From positions 2,960-66,959 of IMG/VR virus record IMGVR_UViG_2773857937_000001: a DNA stretch of 64,000 nt. The stretch is one strand, 5' to 3'. Source of the DNA: a virus. Below the pieces are notes generated by a model. It saw only the letters and a program-made list of their open reading frames with translations, was not told the origin of the DNA and made no database searches. Each line of letters opens with the position of its first letter. Positions within the stretch are counted from its first letter, which is position 1. Positions 2,187 through 52,510 of this stretch are shown piece by piece. The position numbers and the translations under genes were made by a program.

Positions 2187-2869
2187 CAGTCCATACAATT
2201 AAGCAATGCCGCCCTGACCAGAAAGAAACCGAGTATTTCTGGAAATTGTTTCATGCGGCGCAACGCAATGATGCTCGCTGGCACGGTAGTGAAATCAGCA
2301 TTATCGCCGATGAGCTGTCCCGAACGGATTTAGATCGTAACCAAAAGCTATTTCTTCTCCGCGCCTGGCAAGTGCTTGTAGACGACAAAGGAGGATTCGG
2401 GCGCTTTATGGGTGCTTTCGATACCTATGTCTACAACATGCAGGATCCTGATGATGATTGCGTCGCATGGAAGCCTGAACTTAGCAAACTGCTGTGTGAC
2501 GGGCAATTGTTGGACGTGGTTATCGATGCTTATCACTCTGCTCGCCAGCGCATAGCCGAACTGGAGGCGCGTGTATTCACTTCAGCTGCTCACGATGTAC
2601 TGGCAGAGCGCCAACGGCAAATCAACACGGAAGGCTGGAAGCCGGAACATGACGATGAGCACGTAGAGGGCCAACTTTCTGATGCTGCTGCATGTTATGC
2701 GTTATTCGCTACAGACCAAAGACGACCGGTTCCAGCGCACTGGCCATGGTCGGATGATTGGTGGAAGCAACGCGGTCAACGACGTGATTTAGTCAGGGCT
2801 GGTGCGCTAATCATTGCTGAAATTGAGCGACTCGACCGCGCCGCTGGCATTTGCGTGAATGGAGAGTGA
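2183..2869 (+). CDS. hypothetical protein (228 aa) with HDDEH acidic motif (possible NTP pyrophosphohydrolase-like domain)
   Basis: The start was moved to ATG 2183 (MTVHTIKQC), which is preceded by GAGAGGA. The C-terminus carries EHDDEHVEGQLSDAAACYA. Confidence 0.45.
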   Translation: MTVHTIKQCRPDQKETEYFWKLFHAAQRNDARWHGSEISIIADELSRTDLDRNQKLFLLRAWQVLVDDKGGFGRFMGAFDTYVYNMQDPDDDCVAWKPELSKLLCDGQLLDVVIDAYHSARQRIAELEARVFTSAAHDVLAERQRQINTEGWKPEHDDEHVEGQLSDAAACYALFATDQRRPVPAHWPWSDDWWKQRGQRRDLVRAGALIIAEIERLDRAAGICVNGE

Positions 2870-3290
2870 GATGGCATCCAAAATTTATGAAACCCACCTG
2901 GTGCCGATTAACAAAATGGCAGCAATCGTAACGGGTAAGGGCTTTGAGTATCAACCTAACTGCCTGATCAATTGTGATGAGTATGTCGGCCCGCCAGAAA
3001 CAGTGCCAGTAAAAGAGCTTGCTCTAAATCCTTCGTTTGTTGATCTAACTGGCCGAAAGAAAGGGCGTTTTACTGTAATCGGCCTGATGAAAGAGAAAAA
3101 AGGCAGTTGGTTAGTCAGGTGTGTGTGCGGAACGTATACCACGCGCTCTGCAAAATCTATCAAAGGGGCAGACAGCAACCCTAATTCACACCTGGATGCA
3201 TGCCGCCGCTGCATGCATGAGGCTTACCGTAAGCGGGAGTATATCTACCGTACCACAGGCAAAGATGTTGATCTTTCGGAGGTGTGGTAA
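2859..3290 (+). CDS. hypothetical Cys-rich protein (143 aa)
   Basis: The ORF contains CVCG...CRRC cysteine pairs. Confidence 0.4.
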   Translation: MESEMASKIYETHLVPINKMAAIVTGKGFEYQPNCLINCDEYVGPPETVPVKELALNPSFVDLTGRKKGRFTVIGLMKEKKGSWLVRCVCGTYTTRSAKSIKGADSNPNSHLDACRRCMHEAYRKREYIYRTTGKDVDLSEVW

Positions 3291-10637: not shown

Positions 10638-11828
10638 GTGACCTGGGACGAGCACAAAGCGAATTTTGCCAGGCTGGCACGCGATGGCGGCTATACCATC
10701 GCTCAATACGCAGCAGAATTTAATCTTAACCCCAATACAGCCCGCCGCTACCTGCGCGCCTTTAAAGATACTGGCACCGGTGCGGATGGCGTTACACCAA
10801 ATAAACCCGTAAGAACTCCCGCAGCAAGAGCCAGAAATGATCAAAGCAGTGATCATAAAAATAGTGATCACTTAGTCAGTAAAGTAATTAAAAAACAGAA
10901 AGATAAGCGCGTGATCACTGGCGCGCTGGCGCAAGCCTCTCGCCAGAAAAAGCAGTTAAATGATCGCGAAGGTGATCATGATGTGATCACTCGCGCCAAG
11001 CGATCACTTAAATCGCGCCTTGAACGTGATCGTATTGATGATGACGGTGAAACGTTTGAGTTTAGCCCCACCGATTACCAGATAGACAACAACGAGGCCC
11101 GACGGGAAGCGCGCGCCATGCTCCGCCGTTCTGGTGCTGACGCTCTCGAAACAGCCTTACTTGAAAAGACTCTTTCGCACCTCCTTATGCTGGAAAACGC
11201 TCGTGACGTTTGTATTGAGCTTGTGCAGGAGTTACGCACAGAGAACAAAGATAAAGACGAAACGCCGGTTGAGTACCGCATTGCCAGCATGCTTAACAGT
11301 TGCACCGCGCAGATAAGCAGCCTGGTGAACACAATATTCAGTATCCGCAACAACTACCGGAAAGAGAACCGCGAAGCCGAGAAGCACGCGCAGGCTATGG
11401 GCCATACCGGCATTGTGCAGTTGGCATATCAGCGCCGCCGCGAGCTGGGGTGGACCGCACAAGAAACGGCGGAATTCATCGAAGCCCAGGGCGGGAAAGT
11501 GCCCCCTTTGCTTATGGAGACGATCCGTGCCGAACTGCGAATGCCAAAACAGGAGAAACCAGACTCTACCGATGAAACTGTAGACGGTGCTCCATCACTA
11601 GAAGATCTCGACAGAGAGGCGCGAAAACGAGCCGCCAGCCGTCGCGCAGATTCCTCCCTATGGATTGAACAGCGTAGAGAGGAAATAGCCGAAATAGTCG
11701 ATACAGGCGGTTATGGAGACGTTGATACTGAAGGCGCATCGAATGCCCCATGGCTTGAGCAAGACCTCGATGAAGATGAGGAGGAAGACGAGGAAGTAAC
11801 ACGCAAGCTATACGGAGAGGATGACTGA
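10638..11828 (+). CDS. pacA: terminase small subunit PacA
   Basis: Recalled similarity to P1 PacA ([40 protein letters not shown]). It contains the pac site. Confidence 0.8.
10838..11032. other. pac packaging site: cluster of about 9 GATC-containing hexamers (TGATCA/G) in two groups
   Basis: Read directly: tgatca, gtgatcat, gtgatcac, gtgatcact, tgatcgc, gtgatcatgatgtgatcac, gcgatcac, gtgatcg. The P1 pac has 7 Dam-methylatable hexamers inside pacA. Confidence 0.7.
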
Positions 11829-13315
11829 TGGCCCCCCGTAGTTGCGTAACCGATCCACGATGGAGAAAACTTGTCTCCCTATACCGTTATGACTGGATAA
11901 GCGCCGCAGACGTGCTGTTTGGCAAAACACCGACCTGGCAGCAGGATGAAATCATCGAATCGGTCCAGGAGCCGGGAAGTAAAACGAGCGTTTCATCCGG
12001 TCACGGCACAGGTAAATCGGACAACGCCAGCATGTTGATCATGCTATTTCTCATCATGTTTCCAGGTGCCCGCGCAATACTGGTGGCGAACAAAATTCAG
12101 CAGGTCCGGGACGGTATCTTTAAGTACATAAAAATAAACTGGGCTACGGCCACCAGCCGCTTCCCCTGGTTGGCCAACTATTTTGTACTGACCGAGACAT
12201 CATTCTATGAAATAACAGGCAAGGGCGTCTGGACAGTCATCCCTAAAGGCTTCCGCCTGGGTAACGAAGAGGCACTGGCAGGGGAACACGCCGATCACCT
12301 GCTCTATATCATTGATGAAGCCTCCGGGGTAAGTGATAAGGCATTTGGTATCATCACCGGCGCGCTGACCGGGGTAGATAACCGAATTCTACTGTTATCG
12401 CAGCCTACCAGACCGAGCGGCTATTTCTATGACTCGCACCATAAGCTGGCTAAACGGCCAGGCAATCCAAACGGTATCTACACGGCGATAACTCTTAACA
12501 GTGAAGAGTCACCCCTTGTTACCGCCGACTTTATCAAAATGAAGCTGGCAGAGTACGGCGGCCGCGATAACCCGATGTACCTCATAAAAGTACGTGGGCT
12601 ATTCCCTAAAACCCAGGATGGCTTCCTGCTTGGTCGTGATGAAGTAGAGCGCGCTACCCGCCGTAAGGTAAAGATAGCCAAAGGATGGGGCTGGATCGCA
12701 TGCGTGGACGTCGCTGGTGGCACTGGACGAGACAAATCAGTTATCAACATAATGATGGTATCTGGCGATCGAAATAAGCGCCGCATTATCGCCTATCGCA
12801 TCATCGAGTACACAGACGTTACAGAAACCCAGCTGGCAGCCAAGATAAACGCGGAATGTAGCCCTGACCGTTATCCAAACATCTCTATCGTCATTGATGG
12901 TGACGGCCTGGGTAAATCCACCGCAGACCTGCTTTACGACAACTACGGCATAACAGCCCAGCGCATCCGCTGGGGTAAGAAAATGCACAGCCGGGAGGAC
13001 CGCAGCCTGTACTTCGATCAGCGTGCGTTCGCTAACATACAGGCCGCAGAAGCGGTGAAGTCTGGTCGTATGCGTCTTGATAAAGGGGACGCAACGATTG
13101 ATGAGGCGTCAAAGATCCCCGTAGGTATCAATGCCGCCGGTCAATGGAAAGTTATGACCAAAGAAGATATGAAGAAAAAACTCAACCTGCGTTCACCTGA
13201 CCATTGGGATACATACTGCTTTGCTACGCTAGCAAACTATGTACCTCAAAATGAGGTATTAAGCGTCGAAGATGAGGCGCAGGTTGATGAGGCTCTGGCG
13301 TGGCTTAACGAATAA
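11828..13315 (+). CDS. pacB: terminase large subunit PacB
   Basis: Deviant P-loop SSGHGTGKS, Walker [10 protein letters not shown], the P1 pacA-pacB arrangement, and 495 aa. Confidence 0.8.
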
Positions 13316-13341: not shown

Positions 13342-14193
13342 TTATTTGGAACTTTCGGGATTATCATTAACGGGTGATCCCTTTTTTTCTTTACGTGTGC
13401 GAGTTGTTGACGCAGCAGACTGAGCTTTTTTAGCTTCTCTAAGACGTGCAAAATTATTTTTAACATCTTCAATATCTTTAATTCTGTATATTTTAGCTTG
13501 TGGCCAGCGCTCACATATAATTGGCTCGATTGAGTCATATAAGCTGAATTTCTCTTTTTCAAACTCAGGGCTAAGAAACAAGCCGTCTCTCAGCGTCTCA
13601 TCGCAGATGAAGACGCCGCACAAGGGGACATGGTAGGGCACTGACTTCCCTCCGTTATAATTTGGGCTGGTGGAGATATAGTGAACCCTAAGCATCGTTT
13701 CATTGAAGCCATGAATACGCATACGGAATTTTTCATCTTCAGGAAATGATTCCATAAGTTTCTTTGTTTTTTCCAAATTATCTATGTATTTTTTACTCCA
13801 GTCTGTTATTTCCCCTGATTTCTGAATCCTAATATCTTTATCCAGCAGGTGAATGATTCTCTTAGCTGTCATATTCACGCTGTTAATAGCTTCAGTCTGG
13901 TATGTCGTGGCTTTTCTTACCCCTCTTAAAATATTAGGAATGGGGTATAGAATTGTTTTTGGAACATTTAGATCAGGATATTGTTCCAGTTCTTTAGCCA
14001 TAGCAGCCCAACGGTCTATATCCGCTTGAACTCGATCCGTTTCTTTGAACGGTAGTACAACTACTGGCCTAACTGAACGCCCATCGCTCGTTTTATCGAT
14101 GTGTTGTGCGCGGGCAACAGCGCTGGCAAGAAAGAGATCCCTGAATTTGACGAAGTCCCTGTACAACTGTTCGCCATACACATAATTGACCAT
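13342..14193 (-). CDS. c1: C1 repressor of lysis (immC)
   Basis: Strong similarity to recalled P1 C1 (MVNYVYGEQLY...DETLRDG...PVNDNPES). Start set at the MVNYV Met inside the longer ORF. Confidence 0.85.
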   Translation of the reverse strand: MVNYVYGEQLYRDFVKFRDLFLASAVARAQHIDKTSDGRSVRPVVVLPFKETDRVQADIDRWAAMAKELEQYPDLNVPKTILYPIPNILRGVRKATTYQTEAINSVNMTAKRIIHLLDKDIRIQKSGEITDWSKKYIDNLEKTKKLMESFPEDEKFRMRIHGFNETMLRVHYISTSPNYNGGKSVPYHVPLCGVFICDETLRDGLFLSPEFEKEKFSLYDSIEPIICERWPQAKIYRIKDIEDVKNNFARLREAKKAQSAASTTRTRKEKKGSPVNDNPESSK

Positions 14194-14287: not shown

Positions 14288-14304
14288 AGATTTATTAGAA
14301 CACT
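14288..14304 (-). promoter_or_regulatory. C1 operator-like site (AGATTTATTAGAACACT, reverse orientation) between coi and c1, Op99-like
   Basis: 13 of 17 match to the reverse-complement consensus AAATTTATTAGAGCAAT. Confidence 0.5.
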
Positions 14305-14513
14305 TAAGGGGATTCTGTGAAGGCGATAGAGATTAAAAACTCAACAGAGTCAATGAGATCAAACACTTCATCTTCTGTTACTCGATGCTCTTGATTAGAC
14401 AGCTTTAAATGGTGTTTGACAATGGCGCTAGCCGCGTCTGGAGAGGTAAGATCGATAGACAATTCGTTAGAATAATTCTTAACGTCGTCTATTGTAGGTG
14501 TGATAAAAGCCAT
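14304..14513 (-). CDS. coi: Coi, C1 inactivator
   Basis: 69-aa product MAFITPTIDDVKNYSNELSIDL... fits recalled P1 Coi. It is directly upstream of c1 on the same strand. Confidence 0.7.
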   Translation of the reverse strand: MAFITPTIDDVKNYSNELSIDLTSPDAASAIVKHHLKLSNQEHRVTEDEVFDLIDSVEFLISIAFTESP

Positions 14514-14784
14514 CTGTTTTTCCCTACTGAAGTCGCACAACACAGAGCACAAAAGGTATGCCCTGATTATCCAAGGGGTATTAACCTCCGGCCTTACCGT
14601 ACAACCATACCGTGGAATACGCGGTGCTCATTCAGACGATCTTTCCTGCCTCGTTTACCCTAATGACCCCATTTACATGAAGGTGCGTATGGCTTTCAAG
14701 ATCGAGCGACAAGGAATACGGAAGACTTAAGCTATATGCTTGCCAGTGTCCTGGTCATTGCCATCCGGGCTGGCATTGCAAAAT

Positions 14785-14913
14785 GTTGTGGGGCCGGGGC
14801 TTGAACCCGGATAACGGCTGGTCAGCCGTATGAGATATCCCAGGTAATGATCCTTAGATAATGCTCACCTCCCCATATCTGGGGCGCTCTTTCCAATTAA
14901 GCTACACCACAAC
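14785..14913 (-). ncRNA. tRNA-like structured RNA element, copy A (129 nt; tRNA-Ile-like D- and T-arm remnants with expanded variable region)
   Basis: Minus-strand read: GTTGTGG-TGTA-GCTT AATTGGAAA GAGC (D-arm) ... CCGGG TTCAAGC CCCGG (T-arm) CCCCACAAC-A. A 7-9 bp terminal stem is present. It is one of three paralogous units sharing their termini and a conserved flank (AGTGCTCTC.CCGTTGTGGTG). It lies in an ORF-free leader between two C1 operators and coi. Confidence 0.4.
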
Positions 14914-15056
14914 GGTGAGAGCACTGCTCCGGTAGCTTGCGCTACTGGTTCAACTCGCGGCTAAATGAAGATCCACTCATATCCAATGCTCTTACCGTTG
15001 TAAGCCAGTTACCGTATGGCACTGACATGTCGCGTCTTTTTCGGGGCAAAAACTTA

Positions 15057-15073
15057 TAATTTATTAGAACAAT
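15057..15073 (-). promoter_or_regulatory. C1 operator (AATTTTATTAGAACAAT, reverse orientation)
   Basis: 15 of 17 match to the consensus. Confidence 0.6.
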
Positions 15074-15140
15074 TGTCAATCAAAGGCAACCGCTTAAGAG
15101 CATGTTTCTGATTCAAAGCACAGAATTAGCCCTTTTATTT

Positions 15141-15157
15141 ATTGCTCTAATAATTTT
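15141..15157 (+). promoter_or_regulatory. C1 operator (ATTGCTCTAATAATTTT)
   Basis: 16 of 17 match to the consensus. Confidence 0.7.
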
Positions 15158-15200: not shown

Positions 15201-15234
15201 ATAACTTCGTATAGCATACATTATACGAAGTTAT
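15201..15234. other. loxP: loxP site-specific recombination site (ATAACTTCGTATA-GCATACAT-TATACGAAGTTAT)
   Basis: An exact 34-bp match to canonical P1 loxP, including the spacer. Confidence 0.95.
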
Positions 15235-15432: not shown

Positions 15433-16503
15433 ATGGCGCAAATAAAAAGGAACGGAAAAATAAGTATTGGTGATGCCCGGTTATGCATTTATGAAGACCC
15501 GGACCGCGTTGATGATGCTTATGAGCGCGAGTTTAAGCGAGAGGTTTTCCGCCGCATCATCCAAACGTTAAACCGCCTCGGTTGGCTGGTGGAGATCCCA
15601 CAAGACAAAATCGAGCAATACAGTGTTAGCTTCGCGCGCAATTTCCGCTATTGCACAAAAGGAGATCTTAAAGCTGACCTATCCACCTGCGGGCGTAGCA
15701 TTGAACTTGAATTCTTCCAGAGTGTAAACGCGCCGGACCGTCCTGATCACGAAGGTCGGTATCAATCGGACAAAGAAAAGCATATGCCCTATCTACTCCG
15801 CTTAGAAATGTTGCGCACCCGCAAGCGGATAATCACCTACCTGACCAACGTTTTTGACGAGTATAGCCTCGCAGAACCACACTATAGCTGGAAAGACATT
15901 GGCCCTGGCAAATTGACAAATATGGACGTCATTGAAGCCGATTACCGATCCAGTTGGCACTATCACGGCAATTGGGAAGAGTACCTGAAAAAGAACCCGT
16001 ACATGTCCAGTGGGCGAAACAGCACATCAGCAGAAGGTCATCAACTGGTCCCTGGTATGCGCGTCTGGTGGTTTGACTGGAAGGGACGGATTATGACTGG
16101 CACAGCGTGGTATCACATCAATAATATGTGGTACGTCACCTGGGGCCGCTACGGCATAAACAATATCGCGAGCTTTGAGATATTCACTCAATTACCTGAA
16201 AACCCACGAATGAAACGTAACCAGCGCCTGCGCCGCCGTAAACTGGAGGGATTGTTGGTCGATGCCATAACCAGAATGGACTACCTGCGCGCCCACGAAA
16301 TTAAGCAAATGCTCTATCCGGATAACGAGCCGCTTTATCGTCTGTTTCACACAGTCCACCAGCTTTACCACCTACCAGGATTTAATGGCTATACGAAGGA
16401 TCCCAACTACGCGGGTAAATTCCGCCGCAAAGAGGTAGAACGGTTCAGCAATGATGATAACCGCATTGAACCTGTAGGCGCTGAAGAGGAGTCCACCGCA
16501 TGA
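15433..16503 (+). CDS. hypothetical protein (356 aa, Trp/Tyr-rich) inserted between loxP and cre
   Basis: A long ORF with a GAGGT RBS and no recognisable motif. P1 has only about 0.4 kb between loxP and cre. Confidence 0.6.
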   Translation: MAQIKRNGKISIGDARLCIYEDPDRVDDAYEREFKREVFRRIIQTLNRLGWLVEIPQDKIEQYSVSFARNFRYCTKGDLKADLSTCGRSIELEFFQSVNAPDRPDHEGRYQSDKEKHMPYLLRLEMLRTRKRIITYLTNVFDEYSLAEPHYSWKDIGPGKLTNMDVIEADYRSSWHYHGNWEEYLKKNPYMSSGRNSTSAEGHQLVPGMRVWWFDWKGRIMTGTAWYHINNMWYVTWGRYGINNIASFEIFTQLPENPRMKRNQRLRRRKLEGLLVDAITRMDYLRAHEIKQMLYPDNEPLYRLFHTVHQLYHLPGFNGYTKDPNYAGKFRRKEVERFSNDDNRIEPVGAEEESTA

Positions 16504-16722: not shown

Positions 16723-17751
16723 ATGACCAATTCGTTAACCGTTCATCATAATTTGCCCGCCCTCTCCGTTGAAACCACCAGCGATGAAGTGCGCGACAAC
16801 CTCAATACGATGTTTCGTGACAAAGAGGCATTTTCCGAACACACCTGGAAAATGTTGATGTCGGTTTGCCGTGCCTGGGCTGGCTGGTGCGCAGACAATG
16901 GTCATGTTTGGTTCCCGGCAAAATCAGAAAACGTCCGAGACTATTTACTGAGCTTGCAAGCACGCGGTTGCGCGGTGAAAACAATTGAACAGCACCTTGG
17001 CCAGTTAAATATGTTGCATAAGCGTGCTGGGCTGCCACGCCCCAGCGATAGCAATGCAGTATCACTGGTAATGCGACGGATCCGAAGGGAGAACGTTGAC
17101 GCCGGGGAGCGAGCAAAGCAAGCGCTGGCTTTTGAGCGAAGTGATTTTCATCAGGTCCGTGACATGCTGAAAGACAGTGACCGCGTGAAGGATATTCGCA
17201 ATCTGGCCTTCCTTGGCCTGGCTTATAACACGTTATTGCGTATCGCGGAGATCACGCGCATACGTGTTAAAGACATATCACGGACCGAAGGCGGCCGCAT
17301 ACTTGTTCGCATTGGACGAACTAAGACACTAGTCAGCACGGCTGGCGTAGAAAAAGCGTTAAGCCTGGATGTGACAAGGCTGGTGGACCGCTGGATCTCC
17401 GCGTCTGGCGTTGGTGACGATCCTGAAAACTTCCTGTTTTGCCGGGTACGCAAAAATGACGTTGCCGCGCCGTCCCCCACCAGCAAGCTAACCACGCGAT
17501 CACTTGAACATATCTTTGAGGCCGTTCACCGCACGATACATGGCGCGAAAGATGAGACTGGAGAGCGTTATCTGGCGTGGTCCGGACACAGTGCGCGCGT
17601 TGGCGCAGCACGCGACATGGCCCGCGCCGGTGTTGAGTTGCCAGAAATAATGCAGGCTGGTGGTTGGACGAACGTGAACATAGTCCTTAACTACATCCGA
17701 AATCTGGATAGCGAAACAGGCGCAATGGTTAGGCTTCTGGAAGAGGATTAA
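16723..17751 (+). CDS. cre: Cre tyrosine recombinase
   Basis: Near-full-length similarity to recalled P1 Cre (LTVHQNLPAL...HSARVGAARDMARAG...GGWTNVNIVMNYIRNLDSETGAMVRLLED). It is adjacent to loxP. Confidence 0.95.
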   Translation: MTNSLTVHHNLPALSVETTSDEVRDNLNTMFRDKEAFSEHTWKMLMSVCRAWAGWCADNGHVWFPAKSENVRDYLLSLQARGCAVKTIEQHLGQLNMLHKRAGLPRPSDSNAVSLVMRRIRRENVDAGERAKQALAFERSDFHQVRDMLKDSDRVKDIRNLAFLGLAYNTLLRIAEITRIRVKDISRTEGGRILVRIGRTKTLVSTAGVEKALSLDVTRLVDRWISASGVGDDPENFLFCRVRKNDVAAPSPTSKLTTRSLEHIFEAVHRTIHGAKDETGERYLAWSGHSARVGAARDMARAGVELPEIMQAGGWTNVNIVLNYIRNLDSETGAMVRLLEED

Positions 17752-52181: not shown

Positions 52182-52339
52182 AATGGCTGCCTCCTTGAGT
52201 GATTTAAACCATCACCACCGAAGACGCCAATCTTATTGGTGGTGAGACGTACAGGGTTGGCGTAACCGGTCACTCAAGAACCCGGCGCATCTTTCGATGC
52301 CCCTGCACGCCCCACCATAATTTGGATAAAGCAGTGCTT

Positions 52340-52369
52340 TACACACAAAAAAAACCGCGTAGCGCGGTT
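52340..52369 (-). terminator. intrinsic terminator (AACCGCGCTACGCGGTT + U8 on minus strand) between c4-like RNA and icd leader
   Basis: Read directly. Confidence 0.6.
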
Positions 52370-52450
52370 GTGCGCTTGAGTAATATCCGGGACGCCAATC
52401 CCGGTTGCAGATTTTGCTGCAACGAGATAACCCTACATCACCAAGCGTTA
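52370..52450 (-). ncRNA. c4: c4-like antisense repressor RNA of immI
   Basis: It lies between the operators and the terminator. The hairpin CCGGG-ACGCCAAT-CCCGG presents GAUUGGCGU in a loop, and a near-complement ACGCCAACC and a second GACGCCAATC loop lie in the icd leader (52213-52268). Confidence 0.35.
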
Positions 52451-52493: not shown

Positions 52494-52510
52494 AATATTA
52501 TTAGAGCAAT
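52494..52510 (-). promoter_or_regulatory. C1 operator (ATTGCTCTAATAATATT on minus strand), Op51-like
   Basis: 15 of 17 match. Confidence 0.65.

Follow-up and report, generated by a model that had tools for sequence, protein, structure and literature searches.

An oversized tRNA-like RNA element in the coi leader of a P1-like phage-plasmid

The 64,000-nucleotide viral sequence analyzed here over its full length (the window; positions 2,960 to 66,959 of IMG/VR record IMGVR_UViG_2773857937_000001) comes from a P1-like phage-plasmid with the same gene order as P1. Positions 14785 to 14913 of its minus strand constitute a conserved, strand-specific structured RNA with a full tRNA core, situated in the leader of coi, the gene for the C1 inactivator, behind a promoter that bears an operator of the C1 repressor. 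The element is not a canonical tRNA. On balance, and with moderate confidence, we read it as a tRNA-derived, non-decoding RNA that would be released from the coi leader and act as a tRNA mimic. An earlier interpretation made without database searches (the sequence-only reading) had proposed a structured element at this position, and model matches (138 bits for the family model, 32.2 bits for the tRNA model) as well as covariation bear this out.

A covariance model of the family (R1), built from 31 sequences, recovers the element with E ~1e-29 as the sole full match in 64 kb. The Rfam tRNA model RF00005 aligns over its entire length to 14786–14911 (minus strand), above its gathering score of 29, when a 171-nt segment (14765–14935) is searched; no other Rfam family matches this segment at E ≤ 10. 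The same alignment was missed in Rfam searches of the 64-kb window and of a 1.3-kb segment owing to speed filters, and default filters thus hid an above-threshold match, so that oversized tRNA-like genes are easily missed in long-window scans. Eight homologs score 29.5–45.9 bits with RF00005 and others fall below 29, and genuine tRNAs in related loci reach only 19–26 bits with R1. ARAGORN reports no tRNA in the whole window under default settings; with introns allowed (-i), it places the same tRNA frame as the Rfam model.

Homologs were assembled in three sets: nine records from a BLAST search of a plasmid collection (five Salmonella, two Citrobacter, and two Enterobacter), 30 IMG/VR contigs retrieved with a conserved DNA pattern, and, with a second pattern, 14 metagenome contigs plus one GTDB genome, Yersinia massiliensis. 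R1 matches 47 loci (38 distinct sequences) at 117–152 bits. In the model-fitted alignment of the distinct sequences, 96.0% of 1440 cells hold standard pairs, and 11 of the 38 pairs have changed on both sides (85 cells). When partners are slid by one to three columns, pairing drops to 37–52%; none of 500 shuffles reached the covariation score and two of 500 reached the count of covarying pairs. An independent MAFFT alignment agrees, with 95.6% paired and eight pairs changed on both sides. Six of the seven helices contain compensatory changes, including the acceptor and T stems and the tetraloop hairpin as well as the long arm and second extra hairpin, both of which are foreign to tRNA. The alignment contains 92 G-U cells of 1440 that would become A-C mismatches on the opposite strand, which shows that the RNA has the same sense as coi. 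Length is constant at 126–133 nt across the Salmonella, Citrobacter, Enterobacter, Cronobacter, Yersinia, and metagenome copies.

Read on the minus strand from 14913 to 14785, the 5′ half is composed of GUUGUGG UG UA / GCUU AAUUGGAAA GAGC G / CCCCA GAUA UGGGG AG, and the RNA continues with GUGAG..AUCU.AGG AUCAUUA CCU.GGAU..CUCAU A / CGGCUGACCAGCCG UUAU / CCGGG UUCAAGC CCCGG / CC CCACAAC. The acceptor stem is lengthened by 2 bp through the outer G-U/A-C nucleotides (Table 1). Nucleotides equivalent to U8, A14, and G26 are invariant in the alignments, the GG of the D loop is kept in at least 90% of sequences, and the final U (position U48) of a UUAU linker, which occurs directly before the T stem in 38 of 38 distinct sequences, is available to pair with A15. 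The T stem (helix 7) is 100% paired, its pair 109/123 being C-G in 26 sequences and U-A in 12, and the T loop conforms to UUC.A.. in all sequences but one. In place of an anticodon arm, and aligned as such by the Rfam tRNA model, is a short hairpin with compensatory changes in three of its five pairs (at one of these, C-G in 19 sequences and U-A in 15); its loop has 4 nt in 36 of 38 distinct sequences, most commonly UGAA, AGAU, or UGUG. The variable region spans ~57 nt and forms two covarying hairpins. The first is a long arm (helices 4 and 5; three pairs changed on both sides) tipped by a Met/Ile2-like loop, (A/U/C)UCAUAA, in 34 of 38 distinct sequences, with CUCAUAA in Cronobacter phage JK004, AUCAUUA in the window, and AUCGUUA in the Salmonella P1-like copies. 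The second (helix 6) is 100% paired, with pair 94/99 being U-A in 22 sequences and C-G in 16.

The element therefore has in common with tRNA the 7-bp acceptor, the D-arm GG, G26, the 5-bp T stem with its UUC.A loop, and the U8/A14/A15-U48 core, and it attains the gathering score of the family. It departs from tRNA in its length (127–129 nt), in a 4-nt loop at the anticodon position in place of a 5-bp stem with a 7-nt loop, and in having neither an encoded CCA nor a fixed anticodon. Class II tRNAs carry a variable region of at most ~21 nt with one hairpin, and class I tRNAs one of 4–5 nt, whereas that of the element is far larger and holds two hairpins.

The interval between the coi ATG (at 14513) and loxP measures 687 bp. 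Along the plus strand the order is coi, the element, an operator, a second operator, and loxP; the sequence-only reading had mistakenly put the element between the operators and loxP. Its statement that the region lacks a credible open reading frame (ORF) holds among four relatives: no ORF of at least 20 codons is common to the window, two Salmonella lineages, and JK004, and ORFs of at least 20 aa vary in frame, length, and presence (compared in the window and in loci L001, L003, and L004). Both of the C1 operators it had listed are real. Judged by the consensus ATTGCTCTAATAAATTT, the site at 15057–15073 (minus strand) reads ATTGTTCTAATAAATTA with two mismatches and that at 15141–15157 (plus strand) reads ATTGCTCTAATAATTTT with one, in a window that contains 10 matches where 0.3 are expected.

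The first operator is the spacer of a promoter whose layout, TTGACA-ATTGTTCTAATAAATTA-TAAGTT, is identical to that of the annotated P1 promoter P1coi with operator Oc1d, which according to the P1 annotation controls c1, coi, and imcBA. An alignment shows this block to be nearly invariant among relatives. The proposal of an operator-controlled leader is supported for this site, which lies in a promoter facing coi, and needs qualification for the other, the Oc1e homolog, which faces cre. From homology to P1, we infer transcription from the P1coi-type promoter, with a predicted start near 15044; the element would then lie at about +133 (about 130–260 nt from the start) and the coi ATG at about +531. 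Placed behind a C1-repressed promoter, it would be made only when repression is absent, in infection or upon induction.

The ~530-nt leader is conserved throughout the P1-like lineage. Over the coi–loxP interval, the closest public relatives are five Salmonella plasmids (~76% identity); JK004 matches the element itself at 81%, and the entire arrangement is kept at 72–88% in these plasmids and JK004. The leader of P1 itself is ~230 nt long, ~250 nt shorter, and contains the small imcA and imcB ORFs and no tRNA-like element. The leader parts flanking the cassette are confined to P1-like relatives. Probably the cassette and its upstream hairpin were inserted together, in a single event, into the leader of coi in one P1-like lineage.

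Table 1. Positions of the RNA element, its parts, and other features of the window.
Feature	Positions	Strand	Remarks
Oversized tRNA-like RNA cassette	14785-14913	-	129 nt; R1 138 bits, RF00005 32.2 bits
tRNA frame proper	14911->14786	-	7-bp acceptor UGUGGUG/CCCCACA + discriminator A
U8-A9, D arm (GCUU / AAUUGGAAA / GAGC), G26	14874-14902	-	canonical tRNA register
5-bp hairpin with tetraloop (CCCCA GAUA UGGGG)	14860-14873	-	anticodon-arm position, without 7-nt loop
Long extra arm (UGAG...AUCU.AGG [AUCAUUA] CCU.GGAU...CUCA)	14821-14856	-	7-nt Met-like loop at tip
Second extra hairpin (CGGCUGACCAGCCG), then UUAU linker	14805-14819	-	helix 6, 100% paired
T arm CCGGG UUCAAGC CCCGG	14794-14810	-	canonical U54 U55 C56 A58
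Upstream spacer hairpin	14907-15004	-	~20-bp stem CUUACAACGGUAAGAGCAUUGG / CAGUGCUCUCACCGUUGUGG
P1coi-type promoter	15051-15079	-	TTGACA 15079-15074; 17-nt spacer = C1 operator 15073-15057; TAAGTT 15056-15051
Second C1 operator	15141-15157	+	homolog of P1 Oc1e; faces loxP/cre side
Leader remainder to coi ATG	14514-14784	-	without conserved ORF; conserved only in P1-like relatives
Junction motif GCUCUnnnCGUUGUG sites	14908-14922, 14988-15002, 32903-32917, 33051-33065, 33273-33287
Cassette B	32779-32908	-	STnc100 (RF02076) sub-threshold match at 32781-32906, 34.7 bits vs gathering score 47
Cassette C	33150-33278	-
pacB	11828-13315	+
c1 repressor	13342-14193	-	283 aa counted from MVNYVYGEQLY
coi, C1 inactivator	14304-14513	-	69 aa, MAFITPTIDD...
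loxP	15201-15234	+	equals canonical loxP
cre	16723-17751	+

RNase P and the enzymes that process tRNA 3′ ends recognize the acceptor/T stack and the elbow. Because the element displays these features and elsewhere shares transcripts with real tRNAs (see below), the cassette is probably excised. In the mechanism that we infer for its production and function, a tRNA-derived RNA would have kept the L-shaped core, with the 7-bp acceptor stacked on the 5-bp T stem and the D and T loops forming the elbow, while its anticodon arm would have shrunk to a tetraloop hairpin and its variable region would have grown into two further helices, one of them with a Met-type 7-nt loop. This RNA takes the place of imcA and imcB in the leader of the C1-repressed P1coi transcript, from which RNase P and the 3′ tRNA-processing enzymes would excise a stable RNA of ~127 nt, a cut that would leave the coi-c1 message without its original 5′ end. 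The C4 RNA, which is embedded in a leader in the same phage family and processed by RNase P, provides a precedent. The upstream hairpin may serve as an RNase III site or as a competitor of the acceptor stem; the processing of DicF is a precedent for hairpins of ~20 bp as RNase III sites. In the least certain step, the released RNA would most likely serve as a tRNA mimic and occupy a host factor that binds tRNA, early after derepression.

Several observations weigh against this interpretation. A fold in which the upstream hairpin extends over GUUGUGG is favored over one in which the acceptor stem is forced by 2.5 kcal/mol in the window (−82.1 vs −79.6) and by 0.6–9 kcal/mol in relatives, a nearest-neighbor comparison that takes no account of tertiary tRNA contacts. 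The fold energy is only modestly unusual (z = −1.9 to −2.2); since it is unremarkable in itself, the case for a structured RNA rests on comparison. The −10 element of the promoter is weak, and a consensus scanner did not call the promoter because only three of six positions match. CCA is not encoded, and the nucleotides past the discriminator vary. In the window and in the Salmonella coi-leader copies, the Met-like loop differs from the common form, which weakens any function that depends on this loop. Finally, nothing identifies a protein partner of the element.

The alternative that retains the most is that the element acts only in cis. In that case the leader would switch between the upstream hairpin and the acceptor stem, or would be cut by RNase III or RNase P, and would thereby set the stability or translation of the coi-c1 message; the lysis–lysogeny decision would be biased, and the excised RNA would have no job of its own. 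The 3′ strand of the upstream hairpin does overlap the 5′ strand of the acceptor stem, with both using GUUGUGG and the two folds nearly isoenergetic in the window, and the hairpin is conserved in four P1-like lineages. Conservation of the whole 530-nt leader in the P1-like lineage points the same way, as does replacement of imcA and imcB, which the P1 annotation describes as suspected regulators of c1. However, a search for a terminator/antiterminator pair in the leader found no partner. The sole terminator-like site is a weak hairpin at 14561–14576 (minus strand; a 6-bp stem followed by CATACCTTTT, ~48 nt upstream of the coi ATG) that is partly conserved in the Salmonella relatives and absent from JK004. 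No complementarity of the element to the coi start or ribosome-binding region was seen by eye, no formal search having been run.

The element is rare, with one occurrence in 5426 complete E. coli genomes, one in the INPHARED phage genomes (JK004), and nine in plasmids; a first scan of GTDB representative genomes returned none and a second scan one Yersinia prophage. The cassette is also present in unrelated phages and plasmids that lack coi, where it adjoins genuine tRNAs. In the Citrobacter and Enterobacter plasmids, a tRNA-Met(CAU) and further structured units precede it; several IMG/VR contigs have tRNA-Arg(UCU) ~70 nt after it, and its neighbors elsewhere include STnc100-like and DicF-like units. 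An intrinsic terminator lies ~30–40 nt past the cassette in a Citrobacter plasmid and in an IMG/VR contig (L033). In the lambdoid-type contigs that were inspected, a CI-type repressor gene (of PHROG transcriptional repressor families) immediately precedes the start of the array, and in at least one of them (L013) an operator/promoter block is visible between this gene and the array. The family is thus a rare and uncharacterized one that temperate phages place at the start of repressor-controlled early transcripts.

A cassette that occurs without coi, beside tRNAs, and ahead of a terminator is more readily explained as a discrete RNA product than as a cis-regulator specific to coi. An identical cassette and hairpin are followed in these coi-less phages and plasmids by terminators or other RNA cassettes, and all helices as well as the tRNA tertiary nucleotides are under selection there too. 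We consequently regard regulation in cis alone as unlikely; the element is probably portable and excised, a tRNA mimic rather than a leader dedicated to coi. The description of the element as a 5′ leader in the sequence-only reading is accurate as far as it goes, given its position and tRNA-like form in the coi leader, and is incomplete in view of the same cassette in coi-less phages and plasmids.

Could the element instead be a genuine decoding tRNA-Met or tRNA-Ile2 (anticodon CAU) that tolerates insertions? NCBI PGAP annotates the homolog on the E. coli CH468 plasmid as a 129-nt tRNA-Met, the RF00005 gathering threshold is reached, the (A/U/C)UCAUAA loop prevails among homologs, and the arrays are shared with real tRNAs. 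Yet the CAU loop is carried by an arm of ~13 bp that emerges from the variable region, with a tetraloop hairpin occupying the anticodon position, and this geometry is incompatible with the fixed distance from anticodon to acceptor in a decoding tRNA. The Salmonella copies have CGU as the would-be anticodon and, like the window, U at position 37. ARAGORN rejects the element by default and, with introns allowed, assigns Val, Phe, or Glu depending on the homolog, while a canonical tRNA-Ile(CAU) is encoded alongside the CH468 homolog in the same operon. A decoding role is accordingly quite doubtful. An intron-containing tRNA was rejected as well, since the introns and anticodons that ARAGORN -i proposes are inconsistent between homologs. 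The CH468 homolog also adjoins a Tad2 anti-Thoeris family gene. Such a gene is located within ~400 nt past the array in 88–91 kb Enterobacter and E. coli plasmids (L043, 2451–3026; L010 and L011, ~2458–3034); the PGAP name is Thoeris anti-defense Tad2 family protein, and an older label is MW1434 family toxin. In the Salmonella records, locus-tag numbering has gaps at the corresponding place, which suggests the presence of an RNA or pseudogene feature.

It is very improbable that the element is a decaying tRNA pseudogene or a site that works as DNA, whether as the target of an integrase or satellite or as a joint of cassette recombination, with no function as RNA. Many integrases target tRNA genes, and the closing sequences GTTGTGG...CCACAAC, almost identical between unrelated cassettes, could mark recombination joints; against this stand the compensatory changes in six of seven helices, the 96% pairing, the strand-specific G-U pairs, and a length held at 126–133 nt across hosts. 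That the interval is a diverged imcA/imcB coding region, which the sequence-only reading had named as the finding that would overturn it, is refuted, with only the shared slot between P1coi and coi in its favor: BLAST finds no similarity to P1 except in the lox flank, the leaders differ in length, none of the non-conserved ORFs resembles ImcA or ImcB, and no imcA or imcB homolog is present in the interval. Integron attC sites, MITE or ERIC repeats, a group I intron, the Ro-binding helix of YrlA, and a T-box were considered by eye and are unsupported by motif order, size, or Rfam.

Among described RNAs, several resemble the element in one respect or another. The antisense RNAs C4 of P1 and CI of P4 (RF01695) are likewise small RNAs in the leader of a phage immunity operon that are released by processing. 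C4 is present in the window at 52235–52322 and bears no sequence or model similarity to the element, which neither RF01695 nor RF03163 matches; C4 pairs with sites in its own transcript and is not tRNA-shaped overall. The STnc100/PasD small RNAs (sRNAs; RF02076) occur as neighbors in the arrays and have a similar size, the GUUGUGGUG/CACCACAAC closing stem, and a final CCGGG hairpin; the interior is unrelated, and STnc100 does not match the element at E ≤ 10 (14765–14935). STnc100 and PasD are prophage sRNAs of unclear function (bioRxiv 10.64898/2026.05.13.724894; PMC12370729). The mascRNA model gives a weak partial match (16.5 bits) on the T arm of one homolog.

YrlA, the mascRNA of MALAT1, and the tRNA-like domain of tmRNA do not decode; they retain the elbow and acceptor/T stack of tRNA and are handled by tRNA enzymes. 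Their topology and extra arms differ from those of the element, near which no Ro/Rsr or SmpB gene was seen. Phage T4 produces two stable RNAs of ~120–140 nt and unknown function, species 1 and 2, that are co-transcribed and co-processed with the phage tRNAs; T4 is lytic, and these RNAs are not under repressor control. P1 imcA and imcB share the slot between P1coi and coi and are small ORFs of 37 and 31 codons without tRNA-like structure. A literature survey, which had subscription journals outside its coverage, found no described phage tRNA-like RNA of this kind.

We tentatively suggest that the family represents an undescribed class of phage RNA, an oversized tRNA without an anticodon that would serve as an early decoy or sponge for a host factor directed at tRNA, or that would be charged without decoding, and that has been wired into the C1/Coi switch in the P1-like lineage. 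As a decoy, it would have an anticodon nuclease, a defense effector, a synthetase, or a modification enzyme as its candidate target, and it would be among the first products of derepressed temperate phages, made from arrays of tRNAs, tRNA-like RNAs, and sRNAs punctuated by long hairpins. If the RNA is made and excised as proposed, its conserved tRNA body, which has no usable anticodon, would be a candidate decoy against defense systems that cleave tRNA.

The anatomy of the element is solid and unusual, and its placement in an immunity switch is new. If the RNA is made and excised, the P1-type immunity region would hold an RNA player where P1 has two unexplained small ORFs. More broadly, tRNAs, tRNA mimics, and DicF-like and STnc100-like sRNAs just behind repressor-controlled promoters would make up a modular early RNA array common to temperate enterobacterial phages. 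Annotation pipelines currently either miss the element (ARAGORN and Rfam with default filters) or label it as a 129-nt tRNA-Met.

The window contains a second region of this type. Positions 32770–33690 (minus sense) are ORF-free, structured, and downstream of two C1 operators (34237–34253 and 34265–34281), and correspond to the ban-operon leader of P1 (Pban, the dicF-like region, trnA, trnT, and onward). The region includes at least two further cassettes of ~130 nt closed by GUUGUGGUG/CACCACAAC, designated B and C. The sequence-only reading had called the element copy A of a repeat, a designation that the model scores do not sustain: with filters off, the copy A model gives cassette B 14.8 bits and cassette C 8.9 bits, and these matches comprise the closing stem only, to which B adds the last hairpin. 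Rather than copies of the element, B and C are distinct cassettes that belong to the same array system. A search for identical repeat copies in the window was negative, and only the junction motif GCUCUnnnCGUUGUG (five sites vs 0.22 expected) and the closing stem recur. The cassettes are separated by long hairpins whose bases (ACAAC/GUUGU) are the ends of the neighboring closing stems. Closing stems from different types of cassette are nearly the same in sequence, beyond what pairing would require, which could reflect either a processing signal or a recombination joint.

Parts of this second region are widespread. Unrelated Klebsiella and E. coli phages of ~47–72 kb contain unannotated sequence that is 84–92% identical to cassette C with its junction (33149–33296, minus strand), and some part of the 941-nt region is matched by 271 phage and 723 plasmid records. 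The homologous P1 DNA (NC_005856, 69.6–70.2 kb; L006, 2001–2571) is annotated with the plp and upl coding sequences on the opposite strand, and these ORFs may be artifacts drawn over related RNA cassettes. In phage D6 (L007), an 87-nt tRNA-Ser(UGA) at 2331–2417, called by the annotation and by ARAGORN, lies inside a stretch homologous to the cassette region of the window; the record itself notes that tRNAscan-SE did not call the amino acid, and this tRNA may be another tRNA-derived cassette. Flanking the second region in the window are ORFs for a 130-aa protein with a crAss001_48-related domain (PF21825; 33695–34087, minus strand) and a 275-aa SPFH/Band 7 protein (31701–32528, minus strand), neither of which is found in the annotated homologous P1 stretch, where tciA comes after the RNA region.

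Between loxP and cre, the window carries a 356-aa ORF (15433–16503, plus strand) that P1 lacks. Its product contains no Pfam domain and is assigned to PHROG 7674, a group without known function. Of the loci that were retrieved, the only ones with this ORF are P1-like relatives in which the tRNA-like leader is present too; the ORF was considered as a partner protein of the element and set aside, as the two co-occur only in the P1-like lineage. The immI region (52235–52436, minus strand) is recognized by the Rfam models for C4 antisense RNA (80.9 bits), isrK (76.3 bits), and the c4 a1/b1 target (52.7 bits), and a C1 operator match, at 52494–52510, is located beside it.

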